From: a virus
Virus record (IMG/VR): IMGVR_UViG_3300035703_000114
Length of the DNA stretch: 57,018 nucleotides
Direction: 5' to 3' (one strand)
This document shows, in pieces, positions 6,841 to 53,321 of this stretch. The notes under the pieces are model-generated. The model searched no databases, was not told the DNA's origin, and was given only the letters and a program-made list of their open reading frames with translations. The translations under genes were made by a program, and so were the position numbers. Position 1 is the first letter of the stretch. Every line of letters starts with the position of its first letter.

Positions 6841-7265
6841 TACAACGTCACCTCACTCAGTGCTCCAGTTGTTTGGAAGCTGATTTGTGCTGACGTAATT
6901 TCACCGACGCTGGCGCCAAACGAAACGCTGGTGATATAGGCAGTAAAAGAAACGTCGTGATTTGTATTGCCCTGAATAAGGCGCAGACGAATTACTACGG
7001 TGTCGCCGTCACTTACACCGTCAACCTTCAAGACCTTGCGCAGTGCGTCGGCTGCGTCGTTGCGCTCGGCGTCATCGCTGTAGTACAGAAGCGTGGCGCT
7101 ACCGTTGAATTCTTGAACGCCGGGAGCGTATGTGCGCTGCGCGTTGCCAAGGCTGGTGGTCTCCAGCATCTCCACGCTGCCAGTCAGGGTCCAGTTTGTG
7201 ACCTTGAGTTGGGTGGCACCGTCAATCAGCAGGGCGCCGTCTTTGCCAGTAAATACTTTGGCCAT
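6840..7265 (-). CDS. Tail-tube-fold protein (141 aa), second tube-like gene
   Basis: Size and sequence pattern (MAKVFTGKDGALLIDGATQLKVTNWTLTG...SFQTTGALSEV) resemble small siphovirus tail tube proteins. 1-nt overlaps with both neighbours. Confidence 0.6.
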   Translation of the reverse strand: MAKVFTGKDGALLIDGATQLKVTNWTLTGSVEMLETTSLGNAQRTYAPGVQEFNGSATLLYYSDDAERNDAADALRKVLKVDGVSDGDTVVIRLRLIQGNTNHDVSFTAYITSVSFGASVGEITSAQISFQTTGALSEVTL

Positions 7266-7630
7266 TAGATGACAGCCACCAGATTTACTGTAACGCTACT
7301 GCGACCGGGGCGAACAGATCGCAGTTGTGGTTCGGCTTCATAGCGCCACTTGCTGCCCGCTGGTGCTTGCATCGCAACCGATGTTCCAGTCAGCACAGCA
7401 GCAGGTAGATCAAATGTACGGAGCGTGCCGTATTGCGCGTCGTAGTCGGTCAAAAATAACTGAGCATTACTATCGGAAATGTTGTCGTAACTCAGCGACA
7501 GTTTTGCATTACTGCGCTGGTTGCCGTACAAAATACGAATTTCGGATCCTGACTGCGAATTGAAACGCTTAACAGGCCAGTCGCCTGGGCTGAACTCGCG
7601 GCTTGTTGGAACCAGTGCTGGAAACGTCAT
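7265..7630 (-). CDS. Tail-tip protein (121 aa), function unknown
   Basis: ORF coupled by 1-nt overlaps to the J-like gene and the tube-like gene. Confidence 0.65.
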   Translation of the reverse strand: MTFPALVPTSREFSPGDWPVKRFNSQSGSEIRILYGNQRSNAKLSLSYDNISDSNAQLFLTDYDAQYGTLRTFDLPAAVLTGTSVAMQAPAGSKWRYEAEPQLRSVRPGRSSVTVNLVAVI

Positions 7631-10600
7631 TACTCCTGCACCTCAAACGTGCCGGTCAAAATGTCTGCTGCAACAAGGCTAGCGCCGTTCTCGTCCACAG
7701 GAACGTGGATGGCTGAGATGCTGATCAGGCCGTCTTCTTCAATGGTTAGCTGCTCCACTTGGTAGATCGCTTGGTTGTTTTGCTGGGTCAGCAGCGTAAA
7801 CAGGCAGCCATGCACATTGTCGTCAAGGACAACGCCTGAAGATATCGTGATGCTCTGCTCGGTAATTTGTCCGGATGCAGGATCGTAAATAAGCGCGGTG
7901 TAGTCACCATCCCCGATGGGACTGATTGAGACGAGTGTGCCAGCGTCGGTAATAGCGCCGTTGTTTTGCGCTGAGTATGTGGTGCTAGTCGTCAGTACGC
8001 GGATGTACGAGCCGGGCTCGATGCTCAAGCCATCTGGCACAGTTTTGAAGGCGACGCTATGGGTGATGCGGCGACGTGTTGCCAGCAGGAATTTTGCCGT
8101 AAGTAAAGCCTGAGCGCGGTTTGTGCAGAAATCGCTGAGGTCGATGTTTTGCTGGTTCGAGGTGTCACCGCTTGCGTCTGTCCATGAAACAACGGCAGAG
8201 CGCGGTGTAGGTAGCTCGTTTTTTAGTGTTTCGCGCCACTGCACCTGCACTGTGGTGTCGATCCGCTGTGCTGCATCTAGGTAGCTGAGCTGCAGGCTGC
8301 CTTCGATAATGTTGCCTGCAGTGAAAATTTGTTCCACCGAGATCGGTAGTGCTGCGATTTTGCCGTTGCTGTCGTAGGGGAGTGCCGGCATCATGCCGAA
8401 CCGCCCATTCTTGATGGTGAAATTACAGAGCTGCAACGAAGCTGCGTCGTACAAGAACGAGCGCAAGTTTTCCGATTCTTCGATAACGCCGTCAAAGAAA
8501 ATCTTGTTGGCGTTCAGGAAGCGGGCGGTAGTCGTAAGGCTTGCGGTGTCAATCAGCTCGGCGGGGATGGTGCTACCCAAGCCCTGCTCGGAGTTTTGAA
8601 GGAGATACAGCACCAGGTCAGCGAAGTTATTGCTGGCTCCGATTGTGTTGTCGAGCAGGCGCGAAACGGCAATACCTTCCGGTACCCACAGTCGCATCTG
8701 ATCGACGCTGCTAATCTGTCCGCTGCTCTTCATGCTCAAAGAGACGACAGACATGTTTGTGTATTCAGGCGTCGCGTCGTTGGTGACGTACTCGTTGACG
8801 TAAACGATCTCGTGCTCTGGTCCGCTTTCATTGCTTTTGTTCAGCTCTTCGAAGTAGCTGCAGTCAGCAATGCCAGTACCAATCTCAAACGAGCGTTCTG
8901 CTGTGCTCAAGTCGGCGTCTTTCGGGCGCAGGATCTTTTCTTGGACTTGAGTGACAGCAAAAACAAGTGTCACCAAGGTGTAGCCGTTTGCTTGTGCAAA
9001 GGGGTTTGTGATGCTATTTAAGCCGTTTACCTGTAAGTCAGCTTTTGTACCAATAGGCCAGCTTCCTACGTAATTCAAAACTGTGTACGAGATCTCTTGC
9101 CAAGTCCAGCGGCGGATGCTGTCTTTATCCTTGTCTTTATTTTTTACCGATGTGGCTTTTACCCTGAACTCCAGTGTGTGCTCGGGCTTGCCCGATTTTG
9201 AGACTGTGATTCGCTGGCTTTGAGTTGTGCCTTGATAGCGCTCGTCTGTTGCTGCGCCAAAGATGTGCGTCAGCCATGCGTCTACTACAGCTCGATTGTC
9301 ACCTTGATTGACGCGCGTCTCGCTAACCGCGATAGCTGTGGGACTATAGGTGATTGGCAGAACAGTCGGGACATTATTTGCGTCGCTCTTGTCGGTTAAA
9401 AGTTGAGGGGAGTTGGTTAAGTCGCTGATATTTACAACTATGCCATTGGTCTGCAAACTAAAAAAGCCGTAATCGGTCTCAAACAGGCTCCAGCCCAATA
9501 CGCGCTCTTCGTCAGCCTTAAGACGCCATGCGGATGCATCGGCGTAGTTGTGGTAAATATCAGCGCCTGTTTTCGGGATAAATTTGTACTCGTAGTACTT
9601 AGTATCGCTAGCTTTGATGCGAATGTAATTGTGCAGGTCAACGGGGCTGCGACCCACCACACACAAAAGTTGCGGAATTACATCCCACTCAAGTGTTATC
9701 AAACCAGTGGGTACTGGGCGCACTGCGATCTGAAAGAAGCTGGCGCGGTTGAAATAGCGCGTTTGGCGCGGAGTTGTAACCGTGACGCTCTTTTTGTCAA
9801 AACGGAAGAGCTTGGCCGGGGTGGGGATGGTGCTGAAATTACACAAACCCTCGGCGCGGTTCCAGACTTGGGACCGGATACCCAGCTCGATGACTTGGGC
9901 TTCACGTCTAACTGGGCGGATCGAGGAGGCGTAGTAGCGACACAGCGGCCAATGATTGATGTCGCAGTGGATCGTTTGATCGAATGTGGCGCCCTCATAA
10001 CCAGCCAGCGCTTTGCCGACAGCTCGTTCACCAGCAATACCGATGCGGTCATCGCCGAGGACTTCTACGCACTCCATGTCAACCACGAGGCGGCTGACGA
10101 CGTTATCAATACCTTCATTTTTGGTGACACGCCACACGGTTGCACCAATAATCCACTCGGTGCCGACGCTCAACAAATCCGATGCGTTTTCGCGCCAAGT
10201 TTTAGATGAGTCTTTGAGGTCTTTGACTGTGGTTTCTGTTTTGTAGCCGTTGTAAGTGAAGTCGCTGTTTAGCTCCACCCAGTCTTGGCGGTAAAGCGTG
10301 AACTTAATAACATCACCTTTTTGGGTGTTGACGACTGCTTTGCTGTTGTATTCGGTGGCGAGAGAACTGTTGACTGGGCGGTGATGCGTAAGACCCATTG
10401 TGCGGGAGTAGGCGCGACCCACTCCAGGCTGCCCAGCGAGAGCGTCGGCACTTTCTCTGTCGCTTGGGATTTGATCAGCAAGGCTGCCGGCAATCTTGCG
10501 GCGGCGGGCGCGAATCTCTTTCTTTGTTTCGTCGCCGTTTTCGCCCTCGAAGCTGATGCTTGGAGCGCTGATGATTTCCCAGTTGTAGCGATATGCAGTG

Positions 10601-11505
10601 CCGTTATGGATGGGCGTGGCAGTACCAAACTGCACTTGCGACTGGGGCGAGTGCGCCATTGACGCCGAGTCGTCAACGTCCTGCTCGATGCTTGGGGCAG
10701 TAAATACAAAAGGGCGACCGGACGTACCTGAATCGCGTGCGCCTTGGGTGCCTCCGATCAAATTGCGGACACTGGCGGGGTTGTTATTGCCGGCTTGCGA
10801 AGACCAGAACAGCGCGTATTCGTTGAGGTTTAGGTTGTTAAGTGCAAAGGTGCCAAGGCGGACACCGGCAATTTTTGGCGTCGCTAGTCCGTACTGACCG
10901 GCAACATAAATGCCCTCAAATGCGCGGTAGGTTCCGTAGGAGTAGACGCGGCTCCAGACAAGTGCGGGCGTCAGTGTCAGACCGCCTGTATCTACGCCAT
11001 CGTCGCCAACATCGAGCTTGCCGAAAGGGATAGGAATGACTTGACCGTACTCGGCAAGAGACGCGATGTTGTCGAACGATGAGGTTTGATTGAAGCGGCT
11101 GGGACCAATCTGGTTGCGTAGTTCGCGCTGCTTGACGCGTTTATCGGAAACAGCCGGAGGCTTGGGTGCCAGCAACATGCTGGCGGCAGTTAAGGCAATA
11201 CCGATAGCAAGGTTGGTAAGAATAATTGTTGTTGCTGACTTTGCTGCAGTTTGTGCAGCTAAATATCCCGCAGCTACCAAAGGTGCTGCTGCATAAATTT
11301 CCGGGATATGCTCGTATTCGGCGGGGCGAACACCTACATATTGCGTCGCATAACGCACAAACTTTTTATACTCTTCCTCGCTGCATCCCAGCGCTTCGAT
11401 CAGCGCGACTTCATACGGTAGGAGCGGCGGATCGTAAGTTTGTCCGCCGGTTTCCAGTCCACTGCGGAGATCAAGGGGTTTATGAAGAGGATACCGTTCT
11501 GCCAT
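7630..11505 (-). CDS. Central tail fibre / host-specificity protein (lambda J-like, 1291 aa)
   Basis: Very large ORF immediately after the L-like and K-like tail genes, in the lambda H-M-L-K-I-J position. The N-terminus has a hydrophobic segment (TIILTNLAIGIALTAASMLLAP) reminiscent of gpI-type proteins. Confidence 0.8.
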   Translation of the reverse strand: MAERYPLHKPLDLRSGLETGGQTYDPPLLPYEVALIEALGCSEEEYKKFVRYATQYVGVRPAEYEHIPEIYAAAPLVAAGYLAAQTAAKSATTIILTNLAIGIALTAASMLLAPKPPAVSDKRVKQRELRNQIGPSRFNQTSSFDNIASLAEYGQVIPIPFGKLDVGDDGVDTGGLTLTPALVWSRVYSYGTYRAFEGIYVAGQYGLATPKIAGVRLGTFALNNLNLNEYALFWSSQAGNNNPASVRNLIGGTQGARDSGTSGRPFVFTAPSIEQDVDDSASMAHSPQSQVQFGTATPIHNGTAYRYNWEIISAPSISFEGENGDETKKEIRARRRKIAGSLADQIPSDRESADALAGQPGVGRAYSRTMGLTHHRPVNSSLATEYNSKAVVNTQKGDVIKFTLYRQDWVELNSDFTYNGYKTETTVKDLKDSSKTWRENASDLLSVGTEWIIGATVWRVTKNEGIDNVVSRLVVDMECVEVLGDDRIGIAGERAVGKALAGYEGATFDQTIHCDINHWPLCRYYASSIRPVRREAQVIELGIRSQVWNRAEGLCNFSTIPTPAKLFRFDKKSVTVTTPRQTRYFNRASFFQIAVRPVPTGLITLEWDVIPQLLCVVGRSPVDLHNYIRIKASDTKYYEYKFIPKTGADIYHNYADASAWRLKADEERVLGWSLFETDYGFFSLQTNGIVVNISDLTNSPQLLTDKSDANNVPTVLPITYSPTAIAVSETRVNQGDNRAVVDAWLTHIFGAATDERYQGTTQSQRITVSKSGKPEHTLEFRVKATSVKNKDKDKDSIRRWTWQEISYTVLNYVGSWPIGTKADLQVNGLNSITNPFAQANGYTLVTLVFAVTQVQEKILRPKDADLSTAERSFEIGTGIADCSYFEELNKSNESGPEHEIVYVNEYVTNDATPEYTNMSVVSLSMKSSGQISSVDQMRLWVPEGIAVSRLLDNTIGASNNFADLVLYLLQNSEQGLGSTIPAELIDTASLTTTARFLNANKIFFDGVIEESENLRSFLYDAASLQLCNFTIKNGRFGMMPALPYDSNGKIAALPISVEQIFTAGNIIEGSLQLSYLDAAQRIDTTVQVQWRETLKNELPTPRSAVVSWTDASGDTSNQQNIDLSDFCTNRAQALLTAKFLLATRRRITHSVAFKTVPDGLSIEPGSYIRVLTTSTTYSAQNNGAITDAGTLVSISPIGDGDYTALIYDPASGQITEQSITISSGVVLDDNVHGCLFTLLTQQNNQAIYQVEQLTIEEDGLISISAIHVPVDENGASLVAADILTGTFEVQE

Positions 11506-28583: not shown

Positions 28584-28847
28584 TCCCGGCTTTTTTGGCC
28601 GCAGTCGGGGTAGGGGGAGTATTGCGCGCAATATCAAACAAACTTTTGGGCGCAATGCCTAGCCGAATAGAGCGATTCGAATAACCTCGCGGGTCCTGAG
28701 GCCGGGAGGGACCCAGGTTTGTGTCAAGATATCAACCGCAAATAGGATTGCAGGCTATTCTTTATAGTTTGCAGATCCTGGCAATTAATATCTTAAATAA
28801 ATCAGGGGCAGCGAACCCGCCGCCCCTGATGCAATCCGCCCGCCCTC

Positions 28848-28862
28848 GCTGATGCAAACCCG
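28848..28862. repeat. Left copy of the 15-bp inverted repeat GCTGATGCAAACCCG bordering the GC-rich cassette
   Basis: Exact reverse complement of 32472..32486. A degenerate direct copy (ctgatgcaatccgcc) lies at 28826..28840. Confidence 0.9.
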
Positions 28863-28930
28863 CGCGCAGTCTCGCCCGCTCAGCACAAGCAACCCCCGCC
28901 CAAGTAATGGGCGAGGGTGACAGCGCGCAG

Positions 28931-28965
28931 ACAATAAAAGGCCCCCGCCCGGTAAGGGCGAGGGC
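28931..28965 (-). terminator. Rho-independent terminator of the GC-rich cassette
   Basis: Minus strand reads GCCCTCGCCC-ttacc-GGGCGGGGGC followed by CTTTTATTGT, 22 nt after the stop at 28987. Confidence 0.75.
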
Positions 28966-28986
28966 GAGGGGCTCAGCCGGTGGTGA

Positions 28987-30156
28987 TCACCAGGTCAGGC
29001 GGGCGGTGCCATCGGCCAGGGGTTGCGCATCAGGGATAGCGGCCAGGTGGAACGGGGCAGCCTCAGGCCCTGCCCCTCGGCTCACTTTGCTGCGCAAGAT
29101 CACGGCCACACCCTGAGGATCCGCCCACCTGTGATCGGACAGGTCGCCGTTAACGCAAGGCACGGTCACAGCCGGCCCGTGATCCGGGGCGAGGGTGAGG
29201 GCCACCGGCAGCGGCTGCCCCTTGCGCAGGGCCACCGGTACGGCCAGGCGGAACCCTGCCCTCACAGCAGCGGCAGCATCAGCAACGGCCGAGGCCCGAT
29301 CAGCAGCCAGGCTGGCTGTCACGTCAAACCCAGCCTCAGCCTGAGCCCACAGGCCGAGGGGGCCTGACAGCGGCGCCTTGCTGTATTCATACAGTTTGAG
29401 GCTCCCATCAGCGCGCGCAACCCCGAGGGCCTCAGCCAGGGTGACAGCCCCGGGGCTGATGGCCAGGCCAAACCGACGCGCGATCGCGACAGCATCAGCC
29501 ACCGGCAGCGACAGCCTCAGGCGGTGCCACCCGCAAGCCGGCCCCTCATCAGTGCCGCGCAGCCTGACAGCGAGGGGCAGCCCCTCGGCCTGCGCGCGGG
29601 CCCATTGGCGGGCGATCGCCCATACCATCGCGCGCCCGTAGAGGGCGGGGCCGGCGATCATCGCCAGGGTGCGGCGCCCCCGGGCGGCAGCAACGGCAGG
29701 CGACAGGCCGCCATGGCCCGCCCAATTTAGGCATCCGGCAGCACAGCCGGTGGTAGCCCAGGGGCAGCCGTTATGGGCGATCGCCTGCGGGATCATCCTC
29801 TCCCGGGCGGCGAGGGCGGCCAGGTCGGCCAGGTGACTGCGGGGGGCGGTGCTGCCCCTGTGGCCGGGTGTGACGGCAGCGGCCAGGGCGCGCGCGGGCA
29901 GGTGGTGGAGAATGACGGCCCGGGCCTGGGCGCTGCCCTTGCCAAGCTTCGGGTTGCTGTCAGTCAACAGATCAGCGAGGCCGAGGCCGAACCTGGCCAG
30001 GTGGGCGGCAACCTCAGCCGGCAGCCGTACGGGCGCGCAACGGGTGGCCTGGGCGGTGGTGGTGGTGATCACGGGGATAACAGGTAACAGGTAACGGGGC
30101 CGGGTGAGGGCCACAGGGTACCCACCCCGGGCAGGGGCAGGGCGCCGGGTGGCCAT
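28987..30156 (-). CDS. Cassette protein 5 (389 aa from the coupled ATG, or 361 aa from GTG 30072); Cys-cluster protein of unknown function
   Basis: Only long ORF in this stretch whose product reads like a natural protein. TGATG overlap with the upstream gene. Motifs SNPKLGKG and NGCPWATTGCAAGCLNWAGHGG, vaguely GP88-like from memory (unverified). Confidence 0.7.
   Translation of the reverse strand: MATRRPAPARGGYPVALTRPRYLLPVIPVITTTTAQATRCAPVRLPAEVAAHLARFGLGLADLLTDSNPKLGKGSAQARAVILHHLPARALAAAVTPGHRGSTAPRSHLADLAALAARERMIPQAIAHNGCPWATTGCAAGCLNWAGHGGLSPAVAAARGRRTLAMIAGPALYGRAMVWAIARQWARAQAEGLPLAVRLRGTDEGPACGWHRLRLSLPVADAVAIARRFGLAISPGAVTLAEALGVARADGSLKLYEYSKAPLSGPLGLWAQAEAGFDVTASLAADRASAVADAAAAVRAGFRLAVPVALRKGQPLPVALTLAPDHGPAVTVPCVNGDLSDHRWADPQGVAVILRSKVSRGAGPEAAPFHLAAIPDAQPLADGTARLTW
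30078..30094 (-). repeat. Leader-motif copy TTACCTGTTACCTGTTA (upstream of GTG 30072, or inside cassette gene 5)
   Basis: Minus strand reads ccccgTTACCTGTTACCTGTTAtccccGTGatc. Same motif as at 31186..31199 and 31404..31424. Confidence 0.85.
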
Positions 30157-30407
30157 CAGCGGCGGGGCGCCCACCTGCCGTCAGCGGTTTGGCGCTGGAG
30201 GTTGCCCACGTGGGCACCGCCCAGGGTGCCGGGGCCGTCGGGGTGGTGATCCCAACGGATACGGGCCAGGTCATGGCCGCCACCCCAGAGGGCCACCACC
30301 ACACCCCGGGCCTGTGGGAGCCAGCCGGTAACCGCCCCCATCTGCTGACAGAAGGTGGAGCTATAACGCACCCGATCGCCGGGCTGAATTCTGTGCAGCC
30401 GTTCCAT
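30156..30407 (-). CDS. Cassette protein 4 (83 aa), unknown
   Basis: TGATG overlaps at both ends. Sequence MERLHRIQPGDRVRYSS...VVVALWGGGHDLARIRWD suggests a small beta (SH3-like) fold. Confidence 0.65.
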   Translation of the reverse strand: MERLHRIQPGDRVRYSSTFCQQMGAVTGWLPQARGVVVALWGGGHDLARIRWDHHPDGPGTLGGAHVGNLQRQTADGRWAPRR

Positions 30408-31183
30408 CAGGCCACCCCCTGGGCGCGCAGGCTGGCGATGGTGGCAGGACAGCCACCCAGAGCTTCCATCGCATCAGCCACACCCCGGAGCGAGGGCTCA
30501 GCCCCGCACACGTCACGATGCCGGGCGGCGATCGCGCGGGCCTCAGCAGTCAGCAGCCACCCGGCAGCCTCAGCACAGGCCAAGGCGTGGGCGGGGCTGT
30601 AGGTATCGGGCAGGGTGAAAAGGGCCTCGCCCAAGACACCCCGAACCTCTACCCCGTACCGCATCAGGGCAAACCCAGCAACCACAGGGCGCGCGCCCCT
30701 CTCCTGCCCGGTGGCAATCCTGGCCAGCATCAGCGGTAGGGCCAGGGCCTCGGCATCAGCACCGGCAGCACAGGCCGCCACTAGCTCCCGGCATGCGGCC
30801 AGGGCCTGGATTGCCTGGGCGCCATGGGCCAGGGCCTCGCCCTCGCTGGGGGTCAGGGCCGTTACGTATGCATAGGACTCACCCCCATCAAGTGAGCCCA
30901 CTGCGGGCAGGGCGCGCCATGGCAGGCCCTGCCGTGTCAGAAGGGCAGCGGCTGCCGCGTCCGGGCCATCGGCGGCAGGCACGGCCAGGCGGGCGGCCCT
31001 GTCGCGAGGACTGCGCTTAAGGGTGGCAACCCATTGGCCCCGGCCTTGGGAATCACAGCCGTAGCGCACAACGACAGCCGCGCGGGAGCTCACTACGGGG
31101 CCGTGGGCAACATCAGTGGCCACCCTGTCACACCCGAGGGCAGCGAGGGCGGCGGGATCGTAGGGGTGGGAGGGGTTTTGCAT
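30407..31183 (-). CDS. Cassette protein 3 (258 aa), unknown
   Basis: Start taken at ATG 31183 (MQNPSHPYDPAAL...), which leaves a 35-nt gap after gene 2 holding the leader motif. Ala-rich helical C-terminal half. Confidence 0.65.
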   Translation of the reverse strand: MQNPSHPYDPAALAALGCDRVATDVAHGPVVSSRAAVVVRYGCDSQGRGQWVATLKRSPRDRAARLAVPAADGPDAAAAALLTRQGLPWRALPAVGSLDGGESYAYVTALTPSEGEALAHGAQAIQALAACRELVAACAAGADAEALALPLMLARIATGQERGARPVVAGFALMRYGVEVRGVLGEALFTLPDTYSPAHALACAEAAGWLLTAEARAIAARHRDVCGAEPSLRGVADAMEALGGCPATIASLRAQGVA

Positions 31184-31185
31184 GG

Positions 31186-31199
31186 CAGTTAACAGGTAA
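31186..31199 (-). repeat. Leader-motif copy TTACCTGTTAACTG, 2 nt upstream of the cassette gene 3 ATG
   Basis: Minus strand reads ccccTTACCTGTTAACTGccATGcaa. Confidence 0.85.
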
Positions 31200-31218
31200 G
31201 GGGTTACGGGTGTGAGGC

Positions 31219-31401
31219 TCAGGCGGGCAGCGCGCGCAGGGTGGCGGCGGGGTCGATCCGCTGCCACAGGGCCACCAGGCGGGCAGCATCAGCGGCAGCG
31301 CGCGGGCGGCCTGCGGGTTGCCACCCGGCTGCCATGCCCCGGTAGCGGGCGACCTGGGCGAGGGCGGGGGCAGCGGGGCGGGTGAAAAGGCGGGTGATCA
31401 T
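31219..31401 (-). CDS. Cassette protein 2 (60 aa), unknown
   Basis: Start taken at ATG 31401 (MITRLFTRPAAPALAQVARYRG...), directly after the leader motif. Confidence 0.5.
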   Translation of the reverse strand: MITRLFTRPAAPALAQVARYRGMAAGWQPAGRPRAAADAARLVALWQRIDPAATLRALPA

Positions 31402-31403
31402 GG

Positions 31404-31424
31404 CAGGTAACAGGTAACAGGTAA
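31404..31424 (-). repeat. Leader-motif copy TTACCTGTTACCTGTTACCTG, 2 nt upstream of the cassette gene 2 ATG
   Basis: Minus strand reads cccTTTACCTGTTACCTGTTACCTGccATGatc. Confidence 0.85.
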
Positions 31425-31437
31425 AGGGCACCCTGCG

Positions 31438-31470
31438 GGCGCCCACCCACTATGGGGCCAGGTGGGCGCC
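31438..31470 (-). other. Perfect 10-bp stem-loop between cassette genes 1 and 2
   Basis: GGCGCCCACC (31438..31447) pairs with GGTGGGCGCC (31461..31470) around a 13-nt loop. No T-tract follows, so it is more likely an RNA processing, stability or attenuation element than a terminator. Confidence 0.6.
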
Positions 31471-31504
31471 ATACCCCAGGGCGAGGGTGCGGGTTGCGCA
31501 ATTG

Positions 31505-32314
31505 TCACACCCCCACGGCCTCACCCCGGCACAGCCTGAGCGCCCGATCCTGGGCGGCCGTCACAGGTGGCAGGGCAGCCAGGGCGGCAGCGGCTGCCGC
31601 AATTGCGCCCAGGGGCAGGGCGGCCAGGGCCTCCCCATAGGTGCGCTCCCCTGCCATCACAGGGCCATCAGGCCACCAGGCCGGGGGCAGGTCAAACCCA
31701 GCACCCCGCACAGCCTGGGCGATAGGCCACAGGGTGGCCACCCTCTCACCCTGCAGGGCAACCCGGGCGCTGGCGTCAGGGGTGCCGGGATCCCACGGTT
31801 GCAAACCGGCAAACCCACCACCAGCAAACCGGGGGGGCAGCTCAGGGGCGTCCGACAGCGCGCGGGCCAGGCTGGCCAGGCTCACCCGGCGCCCGGCTGC
31901 CGCATCAGCGCACAGGGCAGCCACGGACTCGCGATCCTCACCCGGCAGCACAACAGGGGCAGGCTCAGCCACCCGGGCAGCCACCGGCTCAGGCTCACCC
32001 GGCAGCACAGGGCGGCGCGGGGCTGGGGGGTAGCAGTCAGGGGGCAGGGCCTCGCTGAGGCTCTCAGTCTCGGGGTTAAAGGTGGCAAAACCCAGCCGGT
32101 CGACAGCCTCAGGCTCAGCCACCACCGGGGCAGGCTCAGCCTGGGCGGCCTGAGCCTCCCGGGCCAGCTCCCGCAGGCGGCCAAGGTTCACGTATTGACC
32201 GCCCACCAGATAACAGAGGGTGCGACAGCGCCCGCGCGCGGGGCTCTTAGCAGCGTTCACGCCAGCAGCGCGCAGGATCGCGAGGGCCTCATCGGCAGGA
32301 ATCAGGGTCGACAT
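31505..32314 (-). CDS. Cassette protein 1 (269 aa), unknown; N-terminus possibly DNA-binding
   Basis: Start taken at ATG 32314 (MSTLIPADEALAILRAAGVNAAKSP...YLVGGQYVNLGRLRELA), downstream of the cassette promoter. Pro/Ala/Glu-rich linker followed by a C-terminal domain. Confidence 0.65.
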   Translation of the reverse strand: MSTLIPADEALAILRAAGVNAAKSPARGRCRTLCYLVGGQYVNLGRLRELAREAQAAQAEPAPVVAEPEAVDRLGFATFNPETESLSEALPPDCYPPAPRRPVLPGEPEPVAARVAEPAPVVLPGEDRESVAALCADAAAGRRVSLASLARALSDAPELPPRFAGGGFAGLQPWDPGTPDASARVALQGERVATLWPIAQAVRGAGFDLPPAWWPDGPVMAGERTYGEALAALPLGAIAAAAAALAALPPVTAAQDRALRLCRGEAVGV

Positions 32315-32339
32315 AAGAGATAAGCGATAACGCCACCCA

Positions 32340-32368
32340 TATATAGGCGGCCGCCCGCCACCCGTCAA
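32340..32368 (-). promoter_or_regulatory. Near-consensus sigma70-type promoter of the GC-rich cassette (TTGACG-17-TATATA)
   Basis: Minus strand reads ctgTTGACGggtggcgggcggccgccTATATAtgggtggcGTTATCGCTTAtctcttATG. Confidence 0.7.
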
Positions 32369-32471
32369 CAGATCACAGGGCGAGGGTGCCACCGGCTCAC
32401 CCGGCCGGGTTGCTCCTGGCACAGCCACCCGGGCCACCCTGCGCACAGGTCAACCCATCAGCGGGCGGCCT

Positions 32472-32486
32472 CGGGTTTGCATCAGC
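32472..32486. repeat. Right copy of the 15-bp inverted repeat (CGGGTTTGCATCAGC)
   Basis: Exact reverse complement of 28848..28862. Confidence 0.9.
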
Positions 32487-32708
32487 AACCCCGCCGCGCG
32501 ATCGCATCAGCAACCCGCACGCAGTTAGCAATGCAAACCCGCACGGGGTAGCGGTCGCTAACTCACCTCGAGTTGCAGTCGCGAACACCTCGCGCGTTTG
32601 CGTTTAAAACACCCCGCGCGTTCGTGTCACCGAACCGCGCAGTCGCATTGTCGATGTCACTAACTCACCGCGAGTTCGTGACACCGGCCGCTGCATTGGC
32701 GATTGCAT

Positions 32709-32722
32709 GCTGATGCAAACCG
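32709..32722. repeat. Third copy (GCTGATGCAAACCG, same orientation as the left copy)
   Basis: 13/13 identity with GCTGATGCAAACC. Together with 32472..32486 it forms a second inverted pair about 220 bp apart. A further partial copy (aatgcaaacccgcacgg) starts near 32530. Confidence 0.8.
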
Positions 32723-32750
32723 TGTGGCCTTATATATAAAGAATAGGGGG

Positions 32751-32808
32751 CGTGTGCGCGCGCGGCGGCGCTCGGCGGCGCGGCGGCCGGCGGCGCGGCG
32801 GCGGGGCG
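32751..32808. repeat. Almost pure G/C simple-sequence tract (CGG/GCG-type microsatellite)
   Basis: cgtgtgcgcgcgcggcggcgctcggcggcgcggcggccggcggcgcggcggcggggcg, flanked on both sides by AT-rich DNA (tatatataaag / ttaaacttaaatgcatttttt). Confidence 0.85.
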
Positions 32809-32905
32809 TAGGCGGGCATGCAGGCTTAAACTTAAATGCATTTTTTCCTATATAAAAACCGACCCTCCAGAGTTCCTAAAACTTTTTGGGACCGGCATAA
32901 CGCAT

Positions 32906-32929
32906 AAAAAACCGACCCCTCGCGAGTCC
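32906..32929 (-). terminator. Possible terminator right after the 89-aa gene; one of two copies of a GGGTCGGTTTTT element
   Basis: Minus strand reads TAG-GGACTCGCGAGGGGTCGGTTTTTTATG (short stem with a G-U pair, then T6). A sister copy GGAACTCTGGAGGGTCGGTTTTTATA lies at 32854..32876. Confidence 0.4.
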
Positions 32930-33199
32930 CTACCCCTCCCCGTCGTAAGCCGCCTCAATCCATCTCCCGCAGCAATCGCAACACATGCACTCGCCCTCCC
33001 AATTCGCCTCAAGCCGCACCACACACCACCCGTCGCGACCGTCGGTGAGCGCAATCCACTCCCGCTCTTCTTCCGCGCAAAGCCGACAAATCACACTGCC
33101 GTCATCCATTACCGCATACAAGGGGTAACCACCAGGCCATGCCCATGGCTCACGCACGAGCTGATCAGCCAGCCTGAGCGACTTCGATCCGGTACTCAT
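32930..33199 (-). CDS. Small Cys-rich protein (89 aa)
   Basis: ATGA overlap with the upstream gene. Motifs GGYPLYAVMDDGSVICRLC and ECMCCDCCGRWIE. Confidence 0.7.
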   Translation of the reverse strand: MSTGSKSLRLADQLVREPWAWPGGYPLYAVMDDGSVICRLCAEEEREWIALTDGRDGWCVVRLEANWEGECMCCDCCGRWIEAAYDGEG

Positions 33200-33653: not shown

Positions 33654-33980
33654 TCAATATGAGATATCCACTGTCGCAATGCCGTCTAACGGCACTCCAA
33701 GCGCTGCAGCAGCACCAGCGGACAGGTCAATCGAGTTGCAGTCGCACCTGTCCCTGATTGGCACCACCAGCACGCGACCTCGGTGACGCACCGTGACCCG
33801 CGTGCCACAAGGCAGCCATGGATGCGCGGCTGACACATCCCAGTGGCGGTAGGTGCCACCGCAATACGCCACACGCCCGTGATACCAGCCGTCGTACACC
33901 GTCGCGGTCACCGGCCGCGCATCACCAGCCCCTGGCCACAGCACCAGCGCTGCAGCCAGTGAATGCAAAAACCGCCGCAT
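33654..33980 (-). CDS. Secreted RlpA-like double-psi beta-barrel (DPBB) protein (108 aa)
   Basis: From ATG 33980 (TGATG overlap with the ligase-like stop): signal-like MRRFLHSLAAALVLWPGAGDA, then TATVYDGWYHGRVAYCGG...AAHPWLPCGTRVTVRHRGRVLVVPIRDRCDCNSIDLSAGAAAALG, which follows the RlpA/expansin DPBB pattern. Confidence 0.7.
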   Translation of the reverse strand: MRRFLHSLAAALVLWPGAGDARPVTATVYDGWYHGRVAYCGGTYRHWDVSAAHPWLPCGTRVTVRHRGRVLVVPIRDRCDCNSIDLSAGAAAALGVPLDGIATVDISY

Positions 33981-34702
33981 CACTTCACCGCCAGCGCCCA
34001 ACGCGGCGCCTTAGAGGACTCACCCATCTGGAACTGCACGTCGCGGTCGATCACCTTCGCCACCACGCCATCAGTCGGCCACGGACGATCCCACAGCTTC
34101 CCAGTCCTCCACAGCGCATGCACCTTCTGCACCTCCTCCAGCCGCGTGCAAAGCAGCGAATCCACGCAGTCGAAACCCAGGTCGCCAAGCCAAGCCATCG
34201 CATCGACCTCTGTGCGCTCCTGGAAGGCGCCTCCGAACGCCGCGTAGGCCAACCCACTCGAAACCGCCTTACCGCGCCTCAGAGCCGCTGCTGGCGTGCT
34301 CTGGCGGCCATCAAGTCCCCACAGCTCGCCGCGCACCTCGAACTCATCCGTCACGACCACCTGCGCAGGCACCACCGAACGCACCACCTCGGTGCAATCG
34401 ATTCCGCTACGGGTCCACGCAGCAGCAAGCCGACCACCCACATACCGCAGCGCCACACTCGCGCCATCCACCTTCGGCTGCACCACAACCGCACAACCAG
34501 GCCACCACTCCTCCAGCGGCCCGTTATCGAGCGACAGCAGCGCACGACCACCACCAGGCACCAGCAGCTCCGGTGCATGTGGCGCAACAGCACGCAGCTC
34601 CTCGACCAGCGCATCGAACGCTGCATCGGTCATCACGGGCATCCCAGCCCTGTAAGCGGCATCGGCGCGACGCACCTCAGCCCTAAGCGAAGAAACGGAC
34701 AT
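33980..34702 (-). CDS. NAD+-dependent DNA ligase-like protein with domain Ia plus nucleotidyltransferase domain only (240 aa)
   Basis: LRAEVRRADAAYRAGMPVMTDAAFDALVEELRAV (LigA Ia-type), KVDG (KxDG adenylation motif), and an ending ...SKAPRWALAVK (LigA PRWA-x-A-x-K motif). No OB, Zn-finger, HhH or BRCT region follows. Confidence 0.75.
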   Translation of the reverse strand: MSVSSLRAEVRRADAAYRAGMPVMTDAAFDALVEELRAVAPHAPELLVPGGGRALLSLDNGPLEEWWPGCAVVVQPKVDGASVALRYVGGRLAAAWTRSGIDCTEVVRSVVPAQVVVTDEFEVRGELWGLDGRQSTPAAALRRGKAVSSGLAYAAFGGAFQERTEVDAMAWLGDLGFDCVDSLLCTRLEEVQKVHALWRTGKLWDRPWPTDGVVAKVIDRDVQFQMGESSKAPRWALAVK

Positions 34703-34725
34703 AACCGTTAAGCGATAACTCAATC

Positions 34726-51704: not shown

Positions 51705-52229
51705 CTAGGCCGGCTGCTCCCAGCTTGGCATGACACGAGCTTGACCGTTGTAGTGTCCTACTTTTCCGTAGTCGATATCAGGGATTCCGGCAGTTATAAC
51801 AAAAACCATCTGGCCAATCTTTAGGCCAGGGTATAAAGGAAGAGAATGCAGTCGACGAGCGTTAACTAACTCTAAAGTCAACCTACTTCCGGACCACAAG
51901 GGATCAGCAAAACCAGCGTGGCTGTGCTCGTAACCTTCACGAGCACGAGAAGATTTAAGGCAAAACATACCGCATACATCATTTGGCATGTTGAATGTTT
52001 CGCGTGTTTCCGCAAGCACAAACTCGCCAGGTGCCAGCCAGTAAGGATTTTCAGCCGTGCAATGCGCAATTGATTGAAGTTGCAGCTCGGATGTGTGCTC
52101 AACTTCAACCATAATGTTGTCGCCAAGCCTCAGATCGAGCGATGCCGGATTGAGCAGCTCAGGCTCGAATGGCTCGATCATCCGTTCCTCTTGAATGAGG
52201 CGCTGGATCTCGCGGTCGTGAAGGATCAT
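51705..52229 (-). CDS. dcd: dCTP deaminase (dUTPase superfamily)
   Basis: MILHDREIQRLIQEERMIEPFEPELLNPASLDLRLGD... and ...GMFCLKSSRAREG...GFADPLWSG...LEL follow the Dcd family pattern. Confidence 0.88.
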   Translation of the reverse strand: MILHDREIQRLIQEERMIEPFEPELLNPASLDLRLGDNIMVEVEHTSELQLQSIAHCTAENPYWLAPGEFVLAETRETFNMPNDVCGMFCLKSSRAREGYEHSHAGFADPLWSGSRLTLELVNARRLHSLPLYPGLKIGQMVFVITAGIPDIDYGKVGHYNGQARVMPSWEQPA

Positions 52230-52235
52230 CCGAAA

Positions 52236-53321
52236 TTAGTAGTCCCATTGCACTTTAAGACGCCCTGCGCGAATTCCCGTGTGAATGAAACCTTTTGGTG
52301 CGCCGCGCCCGGTGCTGTAGGGCCAGTTTTTAAGGCACCAGTCTTGAAGCTTGTAAATGTCAATGCCTTCGATGCACCAGTCAACCGCGCCTACTCCGGG
52401 TGCATTGAATAGGTGTTCCGACCCTGACGCGCCACCAACTGAGCGATTGATTGCTGGAGGACGATATCCGCTGGTAATGATCACCGGCTTGTTACCGAAG
52501 GCTGTCCGCGCTCGCTCCAAAAATGCCGCCAGCTCAGCCGCTGTATCGACTTGGTACTGGTGATCAAACCTGCGCGCTTCCTGTCCGAGCGCAAATTCAC
52601 CCAACGTGATATGCGGCGTTAGTCGAGCGCTAAACGGGCTGCTTGGTGTCAGCTTGGCAGGGTCTTGCTGAACCTCAGGCTGCTTCGGCAAGCTAGAGCG
52701 CCAGAGTTCTCCTTCCGCGCGACGACGACGAAGAAGACCAGCCTCCACATTCGTACCCGGATTGCGATACAACTCAAGTGCTGCTGGCACTGCGCCCCAG
52801 TCGCGTTCGCGCAATCGTTTGCTGATGGTCTCGAAGCCAGCAGTGCCATAGAAGCCAGATCCGAGATTGTAAGCGAATGAGATCAAAGCAGACTGCTGCC
52901 CATCAGTCATTTTTGACCAATGCGGTACTGTTTCGCTAAGTTTTTTAGCAATTTGATCAATTTCTGTGCGGACAAACATGTCCGCTTCGATCACAGTGAT
53001 CTTGTCGCCACGACTGACGGGACGGCCACCTGGGTAGCGAGTGGTGCCGTAACCGATTGTCCAGGGGTCGCCACCACTAAAAGGGTCTGGGTAGGCGGTG
53101 AGATGACAACCTTCAAATTCTTTAATAAGTTTTAGCGCTGGAGCATAATCGCCCTGCTTGCCACCTTGACTCCACGCCTTAAACCAACCCTGATCGCGAC
53201 CAAGGATATGCGGATTTGCCTTGTTGATCGCGTCCTCAAGCTCGCTCAGGGCCGCCATTTGATGCGGCAATGCTTTGTAATACTTAAATAAATCAAGTAG
53301 GCGGATTTTGTTTTGCGTCAT
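52236..53321 (-). CDS. Multidomain endolysin: N-terminal module + GH24 lysozyme + M15 peptidase
   Basis: LIKEFEGCHLTAYPDP...WTIGYGTTRY (T4/lambda-type lysozyme catalytic region) plus C-terminal ITSGYRPPAINRSVGGASGSEHL...GAVDW...FIHTG (VanY/M15 zinc peptidase H-D-H pattern). Confidence 0.88.
   Translation of the reverse strand: MTQNKIRLLDLFKYYKALPHQMAALSELEDAINKANPHILGRDQGWFKAWSQGGKQGDYAPALKLIKEFEGCHLTAYPDPFSGGDPWTIGYGTTRYPGGRPVSRGDKITVIEADMFVRTEIDQIAKKLSETVPHWSKMTDGQQSALISFAYNLGSGFYGTAGFETISKRLRERDWGAVPAALELYRNPGTNVEAGLLRRRRAEGELWRSSLPKQPEVQQDPAKLTPSSPFSARLTPHITLGEFALGQEARRFDHQYQVDTAAELAAFLERARTAFGNKPVIITSGYRPPAINRSVGGASGSEHLFNAPGVGAVDWCIEGIDIYKLQDWCLKNWPYSTGRGAPKGFIHTGIRAGRLKVQWDY

Follow-up and report, generated by a model that had tools for sequence, protein, structure and literature searches.

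What is a block of five extremely GC-rich genes doing between the replication genes and the terminase genes of a phage, and does its composition mark it as a newcomer? The question is raised by the IMG/VR virus record IMGVR_UViG_3300035703_000114, a 57,018-nucleotide stretch of DNA (hereafter the window), which is a circularised, circularly permuted assembly with a 47-bp terminal direct repeat. A preliminary description of the sequence had singled out positions 28848-32486 as a self-contained transcription unit bounded by inverted repeats and had proposed a moron or mobile cassette. We find that this operon, whose genes we call E, D, C, B and A in their order on the minus strand, forms the right-hand terminus of the virion DNA, immediately before terS. 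We consider it highly probable that it is an accessory operon at the terminal cos end, lying in a slot whose content is swapped between related phages and anchored by a GP88-family protein (A) with exchangeable partners.

The compositional break is sharp. Between 29 and 32 kb the 1-kb windows have a G+C fraction of 0.715-0.720, as against 0.61-0.64 in the adjoining 32-36 kb and 0.46-0.58 in the rest of the window; over 29.0-32.4 kb the value is 72% versus ~54% elsewhere, a deviant composition of the kind seen in morons. All five minus-strand open reading frames (ORFs) first noted are present (E 269, D 60, C 258, B 83 and A 361/389 aa); a separate gene call on an identical Logan contig gave 269, 60, 258, 83 and 389 aa, and metagenomic homologues number 536 for A, 82 for C and 180 for E. 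The impression of Ala/Arg/Gly/Pro-rich proteins is borne out by residue counts: these four residues make up 49% of the cassette proteins versus 30% of the structural proteins, with Lys at 0.8% versus 4.0%. In gene A the G+C fractions at the first, second and third codon positions (GC1, GC2 and GC3) are 0.76, 0.61 and 0.79, versus 0.60, 0.46 and 0.55 in 39.6 kb of other window ORFs; the excess is thus present at every codon position. An abrupt change of this kind is the one feature that would fit an assembly chimera between DNA of a high-GC organism and a phage contig. This explanation has practically no probability left: a Logan assembly from another run matches 32796-29505 with 100% identity, contigs from six Joint Genome Institute (JGI) samples extend from the cassette up to one and the same cos end, and the order replication genes, cassette, terS is common to dozens of relatives, which share the adjacency of A, cos and terS.

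The end of the genome is marked by a conserved sequence at 28675..28714 (minus strand; GGGTCCC...GGACCCGCGAGGTTATTCGAAT). The form shared among relatives, GGGTCC...CGCGAGGT(T/A)ATTCG(A/G)AT with a hairpin after GGGTCC, corresponds to the window minus strand up to ~28675. This sequence is retained in 18 distinct loci, and at least eight independent contigs break off exactly at the equivalent point. Since independent contigs that stop at one conserved sequence point to a physical genome end, we place cos at ~28675, which is 34 nt upstream of the terS ORF, beside a large terminase of the lambda GpA type, and ~260 bp beyond the operon terminators. This position of the block, at the right-hand physical end of the genome, had escaped the preliminary description. 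The hexamer pair TTGCAT/ATGCAA was considered as a universal cos element and rejected; it occurs only in the lineages of the window and L066 and of L063 and L064, and in a few others (L numbers designate the related loci). In lambda the right, cos-proximal end is packaged last and injected first; by analogy, the operon end would be the first part of this genome to enter the cell.

How the operon came to lie at this end can be read from its relatives. A scan of IMG/VR with an alignment of gene A yielded 61 loci. In all 13 of those that span the slot the A-type gene lies directly upstream of cos-terS-terL, and none of these 13 has an empty slot; the presence/absence polymorphism that characterizes morons was therefore not seen among them. 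The slot family is a large group of uncultivated 55-58-kb phages. In the closest backbone relatives, L064, L060 and L058, terL is 93-94% identical at the amino acid level and the DNA is ~82% identical up to window positions 28733-28788, while A is only 49-53% identical (in L064, 93% for terL against 49% for A). Their cassettes hold other partners, namely two N-domain proteins, one E-like (176 aa) and the other C-like (104 aa), and a novel protein of 256 aa, and the DNA homology starts again at window position ~32571. In L005 and L066, on the other hand, A, B and C are 85-95% identical (85%, 94% and 91%, respectively, in L005) on flanks that are ~70% identical. C and E are mosaics at the level of domains, and L066 has an extra 82-aa gene between copies of a leader that contains a gene-start box described below. 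These discordant identities of cassette and backbone argue for horizontal exchange by replacement within a conserved slot, and the A-type gene in the slot of every relative seen indicates allelic module replacement and not insertion. On this comparative evidence, the module is swapped horizontally by allelic replacement and not by transposition. The horizontal exchange and the autonomous transcription signals implied by the earlier moron proposal thus stand; the empty slots and signs of transposition that would go with a mobile cassette were not found.

The one constant component of the slot is gene A (28987..30072, minus strand), for which the alignment of homologues favours a GTG start at 30072 and a protein of 361 aa; the alternative ATG at 30156 gives 389 aa. 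None of the five proteins had been recognised at first. This holds for B, C, D and E, which have no known family, while A is a member of the GP88 family (PF17338), if by a narrow Pfam pass (25.1-25.4 bits, cut-off 24.4). All 34 homologues aligned, at 58-87% identity, match GP88 (best E=2.4e-11), and A matches PHROG 1617 at E=8e-22. The expectation that the cassette functions fall outside recognisable replication or structural roles is borne out. Across the alignment, the catalytic-type residues K42, K45, C103, C110, C114, R170-L-R-G-T-D175, W182-H183, Y230, K232, D258-R259, G309-D310, D313, R315, K329 and S331-R332-G333 are invariant, and H120 and H314 are kept in at least 90%; the Cys cluster and the SNPKLGKG motif that had first drawn attention to this protein are among the invariant parts. 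The cluster has the form C103-x6-C110-x3-C114 followed by H120, which makes four potential ligands.

An AlphaFold2 model of A has a mean pLDDT (predicted local distance difference test) of 86.8 and a pTM (predicted template modelling score) of 0.87, with a β/α repeat core after the Cys loop. Foldseek found "Gene product 88 domain-containing" models in BFVD (E 3e-12 to 3e-6) and a Gp37/Gp68-like viral model (E=1.2e-8, TM 0.49/0.72); against the Protein Data Bank (PDB) it gave no match at E<=0.001, the best being unrelated TIM-barrel enzymes at E ~0.06, and a sequence-profile search of the PDB with A returned nothing below E=0.05. The model thus suggests an α/β, partially TIM-barrel-like fold related to Gp37/Gp68 (DUF5131), and we predict A to be a GP88-family enzyme with a Cys3(-His) metal or Fe-S site. 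DUF5131 (Gp37/Gp68, PF07505) is entered as a subgroup of the radical S-adenosylmethionine (radical-SAM) enzymes, Megacluster-5-2 of RadicalSAM.org (PMC9477430); A itself has no Pfam match to PF07505 even at E<=1. Our literature search on PF17338 or PF07505 found only this classification entry, for DUF5131, and GP88 genes in annotated phages are always labelled "hypothetical". DNA and protein searches of GenBank phages with the cassette and with A gave no match. The gene is nearly missing from cellular genomes: among 185,579 cellular species it was found on three contigs of metagenome-assembled genomes, assigned to Cyanobacteriota, a gammaproteobacterium and Luminiphilus.

The partners of A are exchangeable to differing degrees. 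Gene E (31505..32314, minus strand; 269 aa) is modular, with an exchangeable N-terminal domain and a near-invariant C-terminal domain of ~100 aa; its family has alternative N-domains, Pro/Ala-rich "PVLPGExEP" linkers and optional inserted modules. Gene C (30407..31183, minus strand; 258 aa) has two domains, which are mosaic among relatives, with no catalytic-type conserved residues or known fold. Gene B (30156..30407, minus strand; 83 aa) has a 94% identical homologue in L005 and is also present in L007, L008 and L038; its start overlaps the stop of C in a TGATG. Both of the TGATG couplings first reported are in the sequence, the second being tied to the less likely 389-aa start of A. Gene D (31219..31401, minus strand) encodes a 60-aa Ala/Arg/Pro-rich protein with homologues in L006 and L017. 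A joint action of the first and last operon genes is best supported by L024, where a 555-aa protein (9437-11104) joins an E-family N-domain of type 2, a Pro/Ala/Gln-rich linker and a GP88 domain; over its N-terminal part it shares 50% identity (E=2e-15) with the N-domain of the E-family member P0462. This protein and the related fusions P0246-P0248 and P0252 have 531-575 aa and come from an unrelated lineage of ~68-kb, 49%-GC phages. This natural (Rosetta-stone) fusion of E and A suggests that the two act together, and since the type of N-domain found in E is here attached to GP88, such N-domains may be targeting or adaptor modules of the enzyme. E would then be an exchangeable adaptor or targeting partner of A, and C probably another.

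The same genomes bear on the idea that A is a packaging or cos accessory, comparable to the HNH protein gp74 for the HK97 terminase, which would explain its adjacency to cos-terS. The position of A directly upstream of cos-terS in at least 13 loci, and at a contig end in many more, speaks for this, as do the repeated sites and tandem arrays between A and cos in several relatives. In the ~68-kb phages, however, the A-type gene is near a ribonucleotide reductase gene, ~2 kb upstream of it in L024, and no terminase gene was detected beside it, which argues against a packaging-specific role. Moreover, Autographiviridae have GP88 genes in their early regions, and cluster A mycobacteriophages have them in the right arm; the terminase of the window is of the lambda GpA type, an enzyme that carries its own nuclease; and a backbone with terL at 93% tolerates an A that is only 49% identical. 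We regard a packaging function as improbable and continue with A as the anchoring component of an accessory operon.

Whether the cassette is a recent arrival is best judged by its base composition across relatives. In 52 loci (L001-L073) gene A has a mean GC of 0.68 and GC3 of 0.73, the flanking ORFs having GC of 0.40-0.64 and GC3 of 0.28-0.81. The correlation between A and its flanks is weak (r=0.27 for GC, 0.38 for GC3), with a mean excess of ~+0.13 at each codon position. Ordinary GP88 genes track the GC of their genomes (0.336 vs 0.341; 0.568 vs 0.573); GC richness is hence a property of the long subfamily to which A belongs (~350-370 aa), with 36 of the 1815 cluster representatives of GP88 relatives in our search, at E<1e-30. 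The A genes of 49%-GC phages have diverged to 65-78% identity with their GC still at 0.66-0.71, and in L024 the gene sits in a 2.2-kb GC island of 0.70-0.75 against 0.40-0.48, with sharp edges.

According to the competing explanation, the cassette is a moron recently imported from a high-GC donor, its GC excess a transient footprint that is now ameliorating. Several observations are of the kind that it predicts: the operon has its own promoter and terminator and a deviant composition, modules have clearly been exchanged between phages, the L024 island is sharply bounded, and there is a slight excess of GC-to-AT over AT-to-GC changes on the window branch. The last rests on a polarised count in three taxa (window, L066 and L005 as outgroup), which gave 27:15 for the window branch and 33:29 for the L066 branch, too few changes to carry much weight, with the L066 branch near compositional equilibrium. 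Import would also have to account for an A-type gene in the same slot of every 55-58-kb relative, for a GC that barely tracks that of the resident genome over the 52 loci, for the GC of 0.66-0.71 at such divergence in 49%-GC phages, and for codon-position values unlike those of an ordinary gene of a 72%-GC genome, in which GC3 is expected to be ~0.9. GC kept despite divergence, together with the weak correlation with the flanks, fits recent import poorly, and we consider it unlikely. The high GC and the Ala/Gly/Pro/Arg-rich, Lys-poor proteins are better read as a stable property of the lineage than as the signature of fresh import. Either the A lineage circulates rapidly from a GC-rich phage pool, or its GC is actively maintained; maintenance could come from a recombination hot spot in which gene conversion is GC-biased, or from selection acting on the DNA or RNA.

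The inverted repeats that first gave the block its borders are a different matter. The 15-bp repeat at 28848-62 and 32472-86 is exact. Its arms belong to a set of at least seven half-sites (GCAAACCC / TGATGCAAACC) that cluster in the two intergenic regions flanking the cassette: TGATGCAAACC occurs in the 57 kb in three exact copies and one with a single mismatch, all in these two regions, which also hold four of the seven window copies of CTGATGCA and four of the five of ATGCAAAC. On the cos side two direct half-sites, CTGATGCAATCC and GCTGATGCAAACCCG, lie at 28826..28862 (plus strand) with starts at 28827 and 28850, 23 nt apart; the second is the left arm, and the pair is kept in L066. On the upstream side the right arm (32472-86) is part of a dyad-symmetric site, GGGTTTGC-ATCA-GCAACCCC (32472..32494, no strand), which is kept in L005; further half-sites, likewise strandless, stand at 32504-17, 32531-41 and 32703-22 (intergenic region 32504..32722). 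Since the right arm is inside a palindrome, inverted matches to any other copy are automatic. Of 300 Markov simulations of the GC-rich 5.5 kb, 73 contained a perfect 15-mer inverted repeat at some position; in the same 300 runs, repeats linking the two intergenic regions were never longer than 12 nt, against the 15 observed. The half-site motif is real, and the inverted repeat reads best as a set of protein-binding half-sites. The pair before cos precedes, by ~45-105 nt, a promoter-like site directed across cos into terS, and the dyad site precedes the operon promoter by ~105 nt; the half-sites are most likely operators for a regulator of the phage.

The arms might instead be the ends of a mobile or invertible element, whether transposon-like, like a miniature inverted-repeat transposable element (MITE) or of the Gin/Hin type. 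In favour of this, the perfect repeat linking the two regions exceeds all 300 simulations. An inverted pair also flanks the related L005 cassette (32 nt at 78% identity, perfect over a core of 12 nt), and another, perfect over its 13 nt, the non-homologous L064 cassette; the arms lie inside the swapped segment. Other traces of such an element were not found. There is no target-site duplication at the arms, the flank before one arm, ...CCGCCCTC (...GCCCTC), being unrelated to that after the other, AACCCCGC (AACCCC...); transposase, integrase, invertase and resolvase domains were not found in the cassette proteins or the window genes scanned; the segment has a single orientation in all independent assemblies; and the arms belong to the half-site family, the right one being palindromic. 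Alignment of relatives, first suggested as a check on whether breakpoints fall at the repeats, puts them at ~28788 and ~32571, 60-85 bp outside the arms. No bracketing repeats were found around the L024 GC island. The element interpretation is thereby largely refuted. We attribute the inverted pairs around the L005 and L064 cassettes to the same motif family, and on their account retain a small probability for a DNA-level role of the inverted arrangement. In L038, L011, L001, L021 and L016 the spacer before cos holds long tandem arrays of short GC-rich units (GCTGATCGCCCTGGAG xN in L038, CCTGGGCTTCGCACCG xN in L001), where assemblies sometimes break; the spacer of the window has only the two half-sites.

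The operon promoter, TTGACG-17-TATATA, lies with a short 5′ leader at 32315..32368 (minus strand; -35 at 32368-63, -10 at 32345-40). It was not listed by a consensus promoter scan of the window. A TTG(A/C)C(G/A)-17-TATATAT-GGG sequence stands at the head of the corresponding cassette in at least eight diverged relatives, and the promoter with its -10 context is kept in L006, L007, L009, L012, L026, L058, L064 and L074, whose cassette DNA is otherwise not alignable; such retention is good comparative evidence for a functional, sigma-70-type promoter. At the other end, the GC-stem/T-tract terminator first described was recovered by a terminator scan (28941-65 plus the T-tract): it occupies 28931..28965 (minus strand), with a 10-bp stem of nine GC pairs and a CTTTTATTGT tail, and is kept in L005 and L066. 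A second terminator-like hairpin from the scan follows at 28801..28830 (minus strand; 13-bp stem, TTATTTAAGA tail). The cassette accordingly has the promoter and terminator of its own that a moron has, the former conserved and the latter identified by scanning, and the view of a self-contained transcription unit was sound. The promoter-like site directed towards terS across cos (28757..28784, minus strand; TTGCCA-16-AAGAAT) comes from the consensus scan alone and is a candidate late promoter. A terminator-like hairpin at 32914..32928 (minus strand; scan) closes the transcript of the upstream replication genes after an 89-aa gene. The intergenic region between this gene and the cassette holds three 21-nt direct repeats (GTCGCTAACTCACCTCGAGTT-like; 32554, 32578 and 32656, within 32554-32676, no strand) and, within 32740-32820, an irregular GCG/GGC-rich tract of ~60 nt. 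Its part from 32571 to 32821 is 90% identical in L064 and hence part of the conserved flank; it may be regulatory or origin-like. Rfam and tRNA scans gave no match.

A further signal recurs inside the operon. A box of the form CCC-(T)TTACCTG-TTACCTG-... stands ahead of the starts of A, C and D, at 30073..30098 before A (CCCGTTACCTGTTACCTGTTATCCCC), 31184..31210 before C and 31402..31428 before D, where it has three tandem TTACCTG heptads; a variant, TTATCGCTTATCTCTT, stands in the leader before E at 32315-32333 (all minus strand). The exact sequence TTACCTGTTA occurs in the window only at the starts of A, C and D. Over 67 loci (816 kb), TTACC[TGC][GCT]TT[AG] (TTACCNNTTR) has 63 sites on the coding strand of A and none on the opposite strand, and in 52 of the 63 a start codon, counted if it opens an ORF of at least 45 codons, follows after 2-14 nt, mostly 5-6 nt. 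The box is seen in L001, L005-L008, L010, L021, L064 and L066 besides the window, and over-extended gene calls read it as "YLLP" or "RYRL". It occupies the position of a Shine-Dalgarno sequence, and a GAGG-type Shine-Dalgarno precedes only ~40% of the likely genes of the window. It is hence a candidate for a translational signal, an operator of a translational regulator or a near-leaderless promoter. A complementarity that we take it to have with 16S rRNA nt ~1497-1508 was considered and set aside. The extra gene of L066 between copies of the leader suggests, from this one case, that the boxes may also act as recombination linkers.

Beyond the operon, the upstream genes on the same strand are replication genes, comprising a primase, a 243-aa protein, a fragment of an NAD-dependent ligase, a DPBB protein and small proteins. 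The ligase is represented by a 247-aa adenylation-domain ORF (33980-34723, minus strand) and a separate 89-aa ORF (32930-33199, minus strand) that matches a "DNA ligase" PHROG, and may be split or truncated. The sister phage L064 has, between its 89-aa gene and its cassette, a homing-endonuclease-like gene with HNH_3 and AP2 domains (7031-7537, minus strand) that is absent from the window. A dCTP deaminase-like gene (51705-52229, minus strand) hints at altered nucleotide metabolism, and is adjoined by a lysozyme and peptidase M15 fusion (endolysin) at 52236-53321 (minus strand), far from cos. The best terL relatives, at <48% identity, include a Synechococcus phage and Roseobacter phages.

Taken together, the five genes E-D-C-B-A would form an accessory operon that takes up the final ~3.7 kb of a cos-type genome, with the replication genes on one side and cos/terS on the other, and that is transcribed from its own sigma-70-type promoter to intrinsic terminators before cos. 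The content of the slot would be exchanged by recombination in the conserved flanks and between the gene-start boxes inside, and the half-sites, which lie ahead of both the operon promoter and the putative late promoter, would serve as operators of a regulator. A would be the constant, anchoring enzyme, with E and probably C as exchangeable adaptors or targeting partners. It might be an accessory enzyme system that acts early, with nucleic acid, nucleotides or a host target as its substrate, and that serves to protect the genome or to take over the host; as in lambda, the DNA end that encodes it would be the first to enter. We hold the anatomical part with confidence; the proposed early role in genome protection or host takeover is tentative, and anatomy and function taken jointly are only somewhat favoured. 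More speculative still is a wider view of the GP88 module as a horizontally circulating system of an enzyme and exchangeable adaptors, used in early anti-defence, host takeover or nucleic-acid modification, its composition actively maintained, possibly by GC-biased gene conversion or by selection to escape AT-targeting silencing or nucleases, and with a dedicated non-Shine-Dalgarno start signal, UUACCNNUUR.

A number of points weigh against these functional proposals. The role assigned to each of the five proteins is deduced from context and comparison. Searches of the five against Pfam, PHROGs, NCBIfam and PADLOC returned nothing beyond GP88, sequence-profile searches of the PDB with C, E and B nothing below E=0.05, and Foldseek with C no significant match in the PDB. 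In A the radical-SAM motif CX3CX2C is absent, and the model matched no solved radical-SAM structure in the PDB by Foldseek. H120 as the fourth ligand could make the site a structural Zn or Fe-S site and not a catalytic cluster. In view of the absent motif and the conserved His ligand we do not file A as a radical-SAM enzyme. Both the timing of expression and the first-entering end are assigned by analogy with lambda, T7-like phages and L5, and transcription of the operon runs towards the genome end, unlike that of the L5 right arm. The operator role of the half-sites likewise presupposes a binding regulator that is only proposed, and the polarised substitutions are few.

The interest of the locus lies in part in the family: GP88 is widespread in mycobacteriophages, pelagiphages, rhizobiophages and many uncultivated phages, with no function assigned to it. 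The locus gives GP88 testable handles in the form of a confident Cys3-His structure model, partner genes and a natural fusion, as well as a defined promoter, a terminator, candidate operators and a position on terminal DNA; the fusion of E and A points to a multi-protein system. Two features are unusual, namely the compositional autonomy of the A lineage and a start box specific to one strand. The former, with A at ~68% GC in phages of 40-64% GC, is a clean natural case for the study of how local composition is maintained, and the latter a candidate for a new translation or regulatory signal.

Comparison with known systems places these features as follows. Like the morons defined in the comparative genomics of HK97 and lambda, the cassette is a promoter-to-terminator unit of deviant composition that lies between modules and has a function not required by them. 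It differs from morons in that the slot is filled in all relatives seen, with alternative alleles, that it has five genes instead of one or two, and that its GC is above that of the genome, stably across lineages. The PeSL (promoter early stem-loop) elements of T4-type phages are reportedly mobile regulatory cassettes in which promoter/stem-loop repeats flank and shuffle small genes. The gene-start box resembles them as a short repeated regulatory sequence before many small genes of a hyperplastic region, with the L066 insertion between copies; it differs in being a C/U-rich sequence of 10-27 nt placed 2-14 nt from the start codon, and not an early promoter with a terminator hairpin.

Within PF17338 and PHROG 1617, the family of gene 88 of mycobacteriophage L5 type, A shares the Pfam pass and the family motifs. 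Common to A, gp03 of Pelagibacter phage HTVC120P and the protein of Rhizobium phage TRX32-1, both early-region genes, the former upstream of the RNA polymerase gene, are N-x-K-x-x-K-G, C-x6/7-C-x3-C...H, (N/R)GT(S)D, Y-(D/E)-Y-(T/S)-K, D-x-x-D-x-R-(F/W) and K-x-(S/K)-(R/A)-(G/K). The GP88 genes of cluster A mycobacteriophages (genes 83-93) lie 1.5-2.7 kb from the right end and so, like A, within a few kb of a genome end. A differs in an extra N-terminal region of ~95 aa, to which some members of its subfamily add further N-terminal fusions, and in a subfamily that is GC-rich in every genome, where ordinary GP88 genes match theirs. With DUF5131 (Gp37/Gp68) A shares a three-Cys motif before a β/α repeat core and the fold match to a viral model, but its Cys spacing is CX6CX3C and it matches neither PF07505 nor a solved radical-SAM structure.

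The setting as a whole is that of the cos-proximal right end of lambda, with which it shares a genome end, a cos and GpA-type terS/terL, the cassette being opposite the packaging start if the direction of packaging is taken from the analogy. In lambda this end carries the lysis genes; here the lysozyme/peptidase gene is at 52236-53321, and the terminal position is held by the GP88-anchored cassette.

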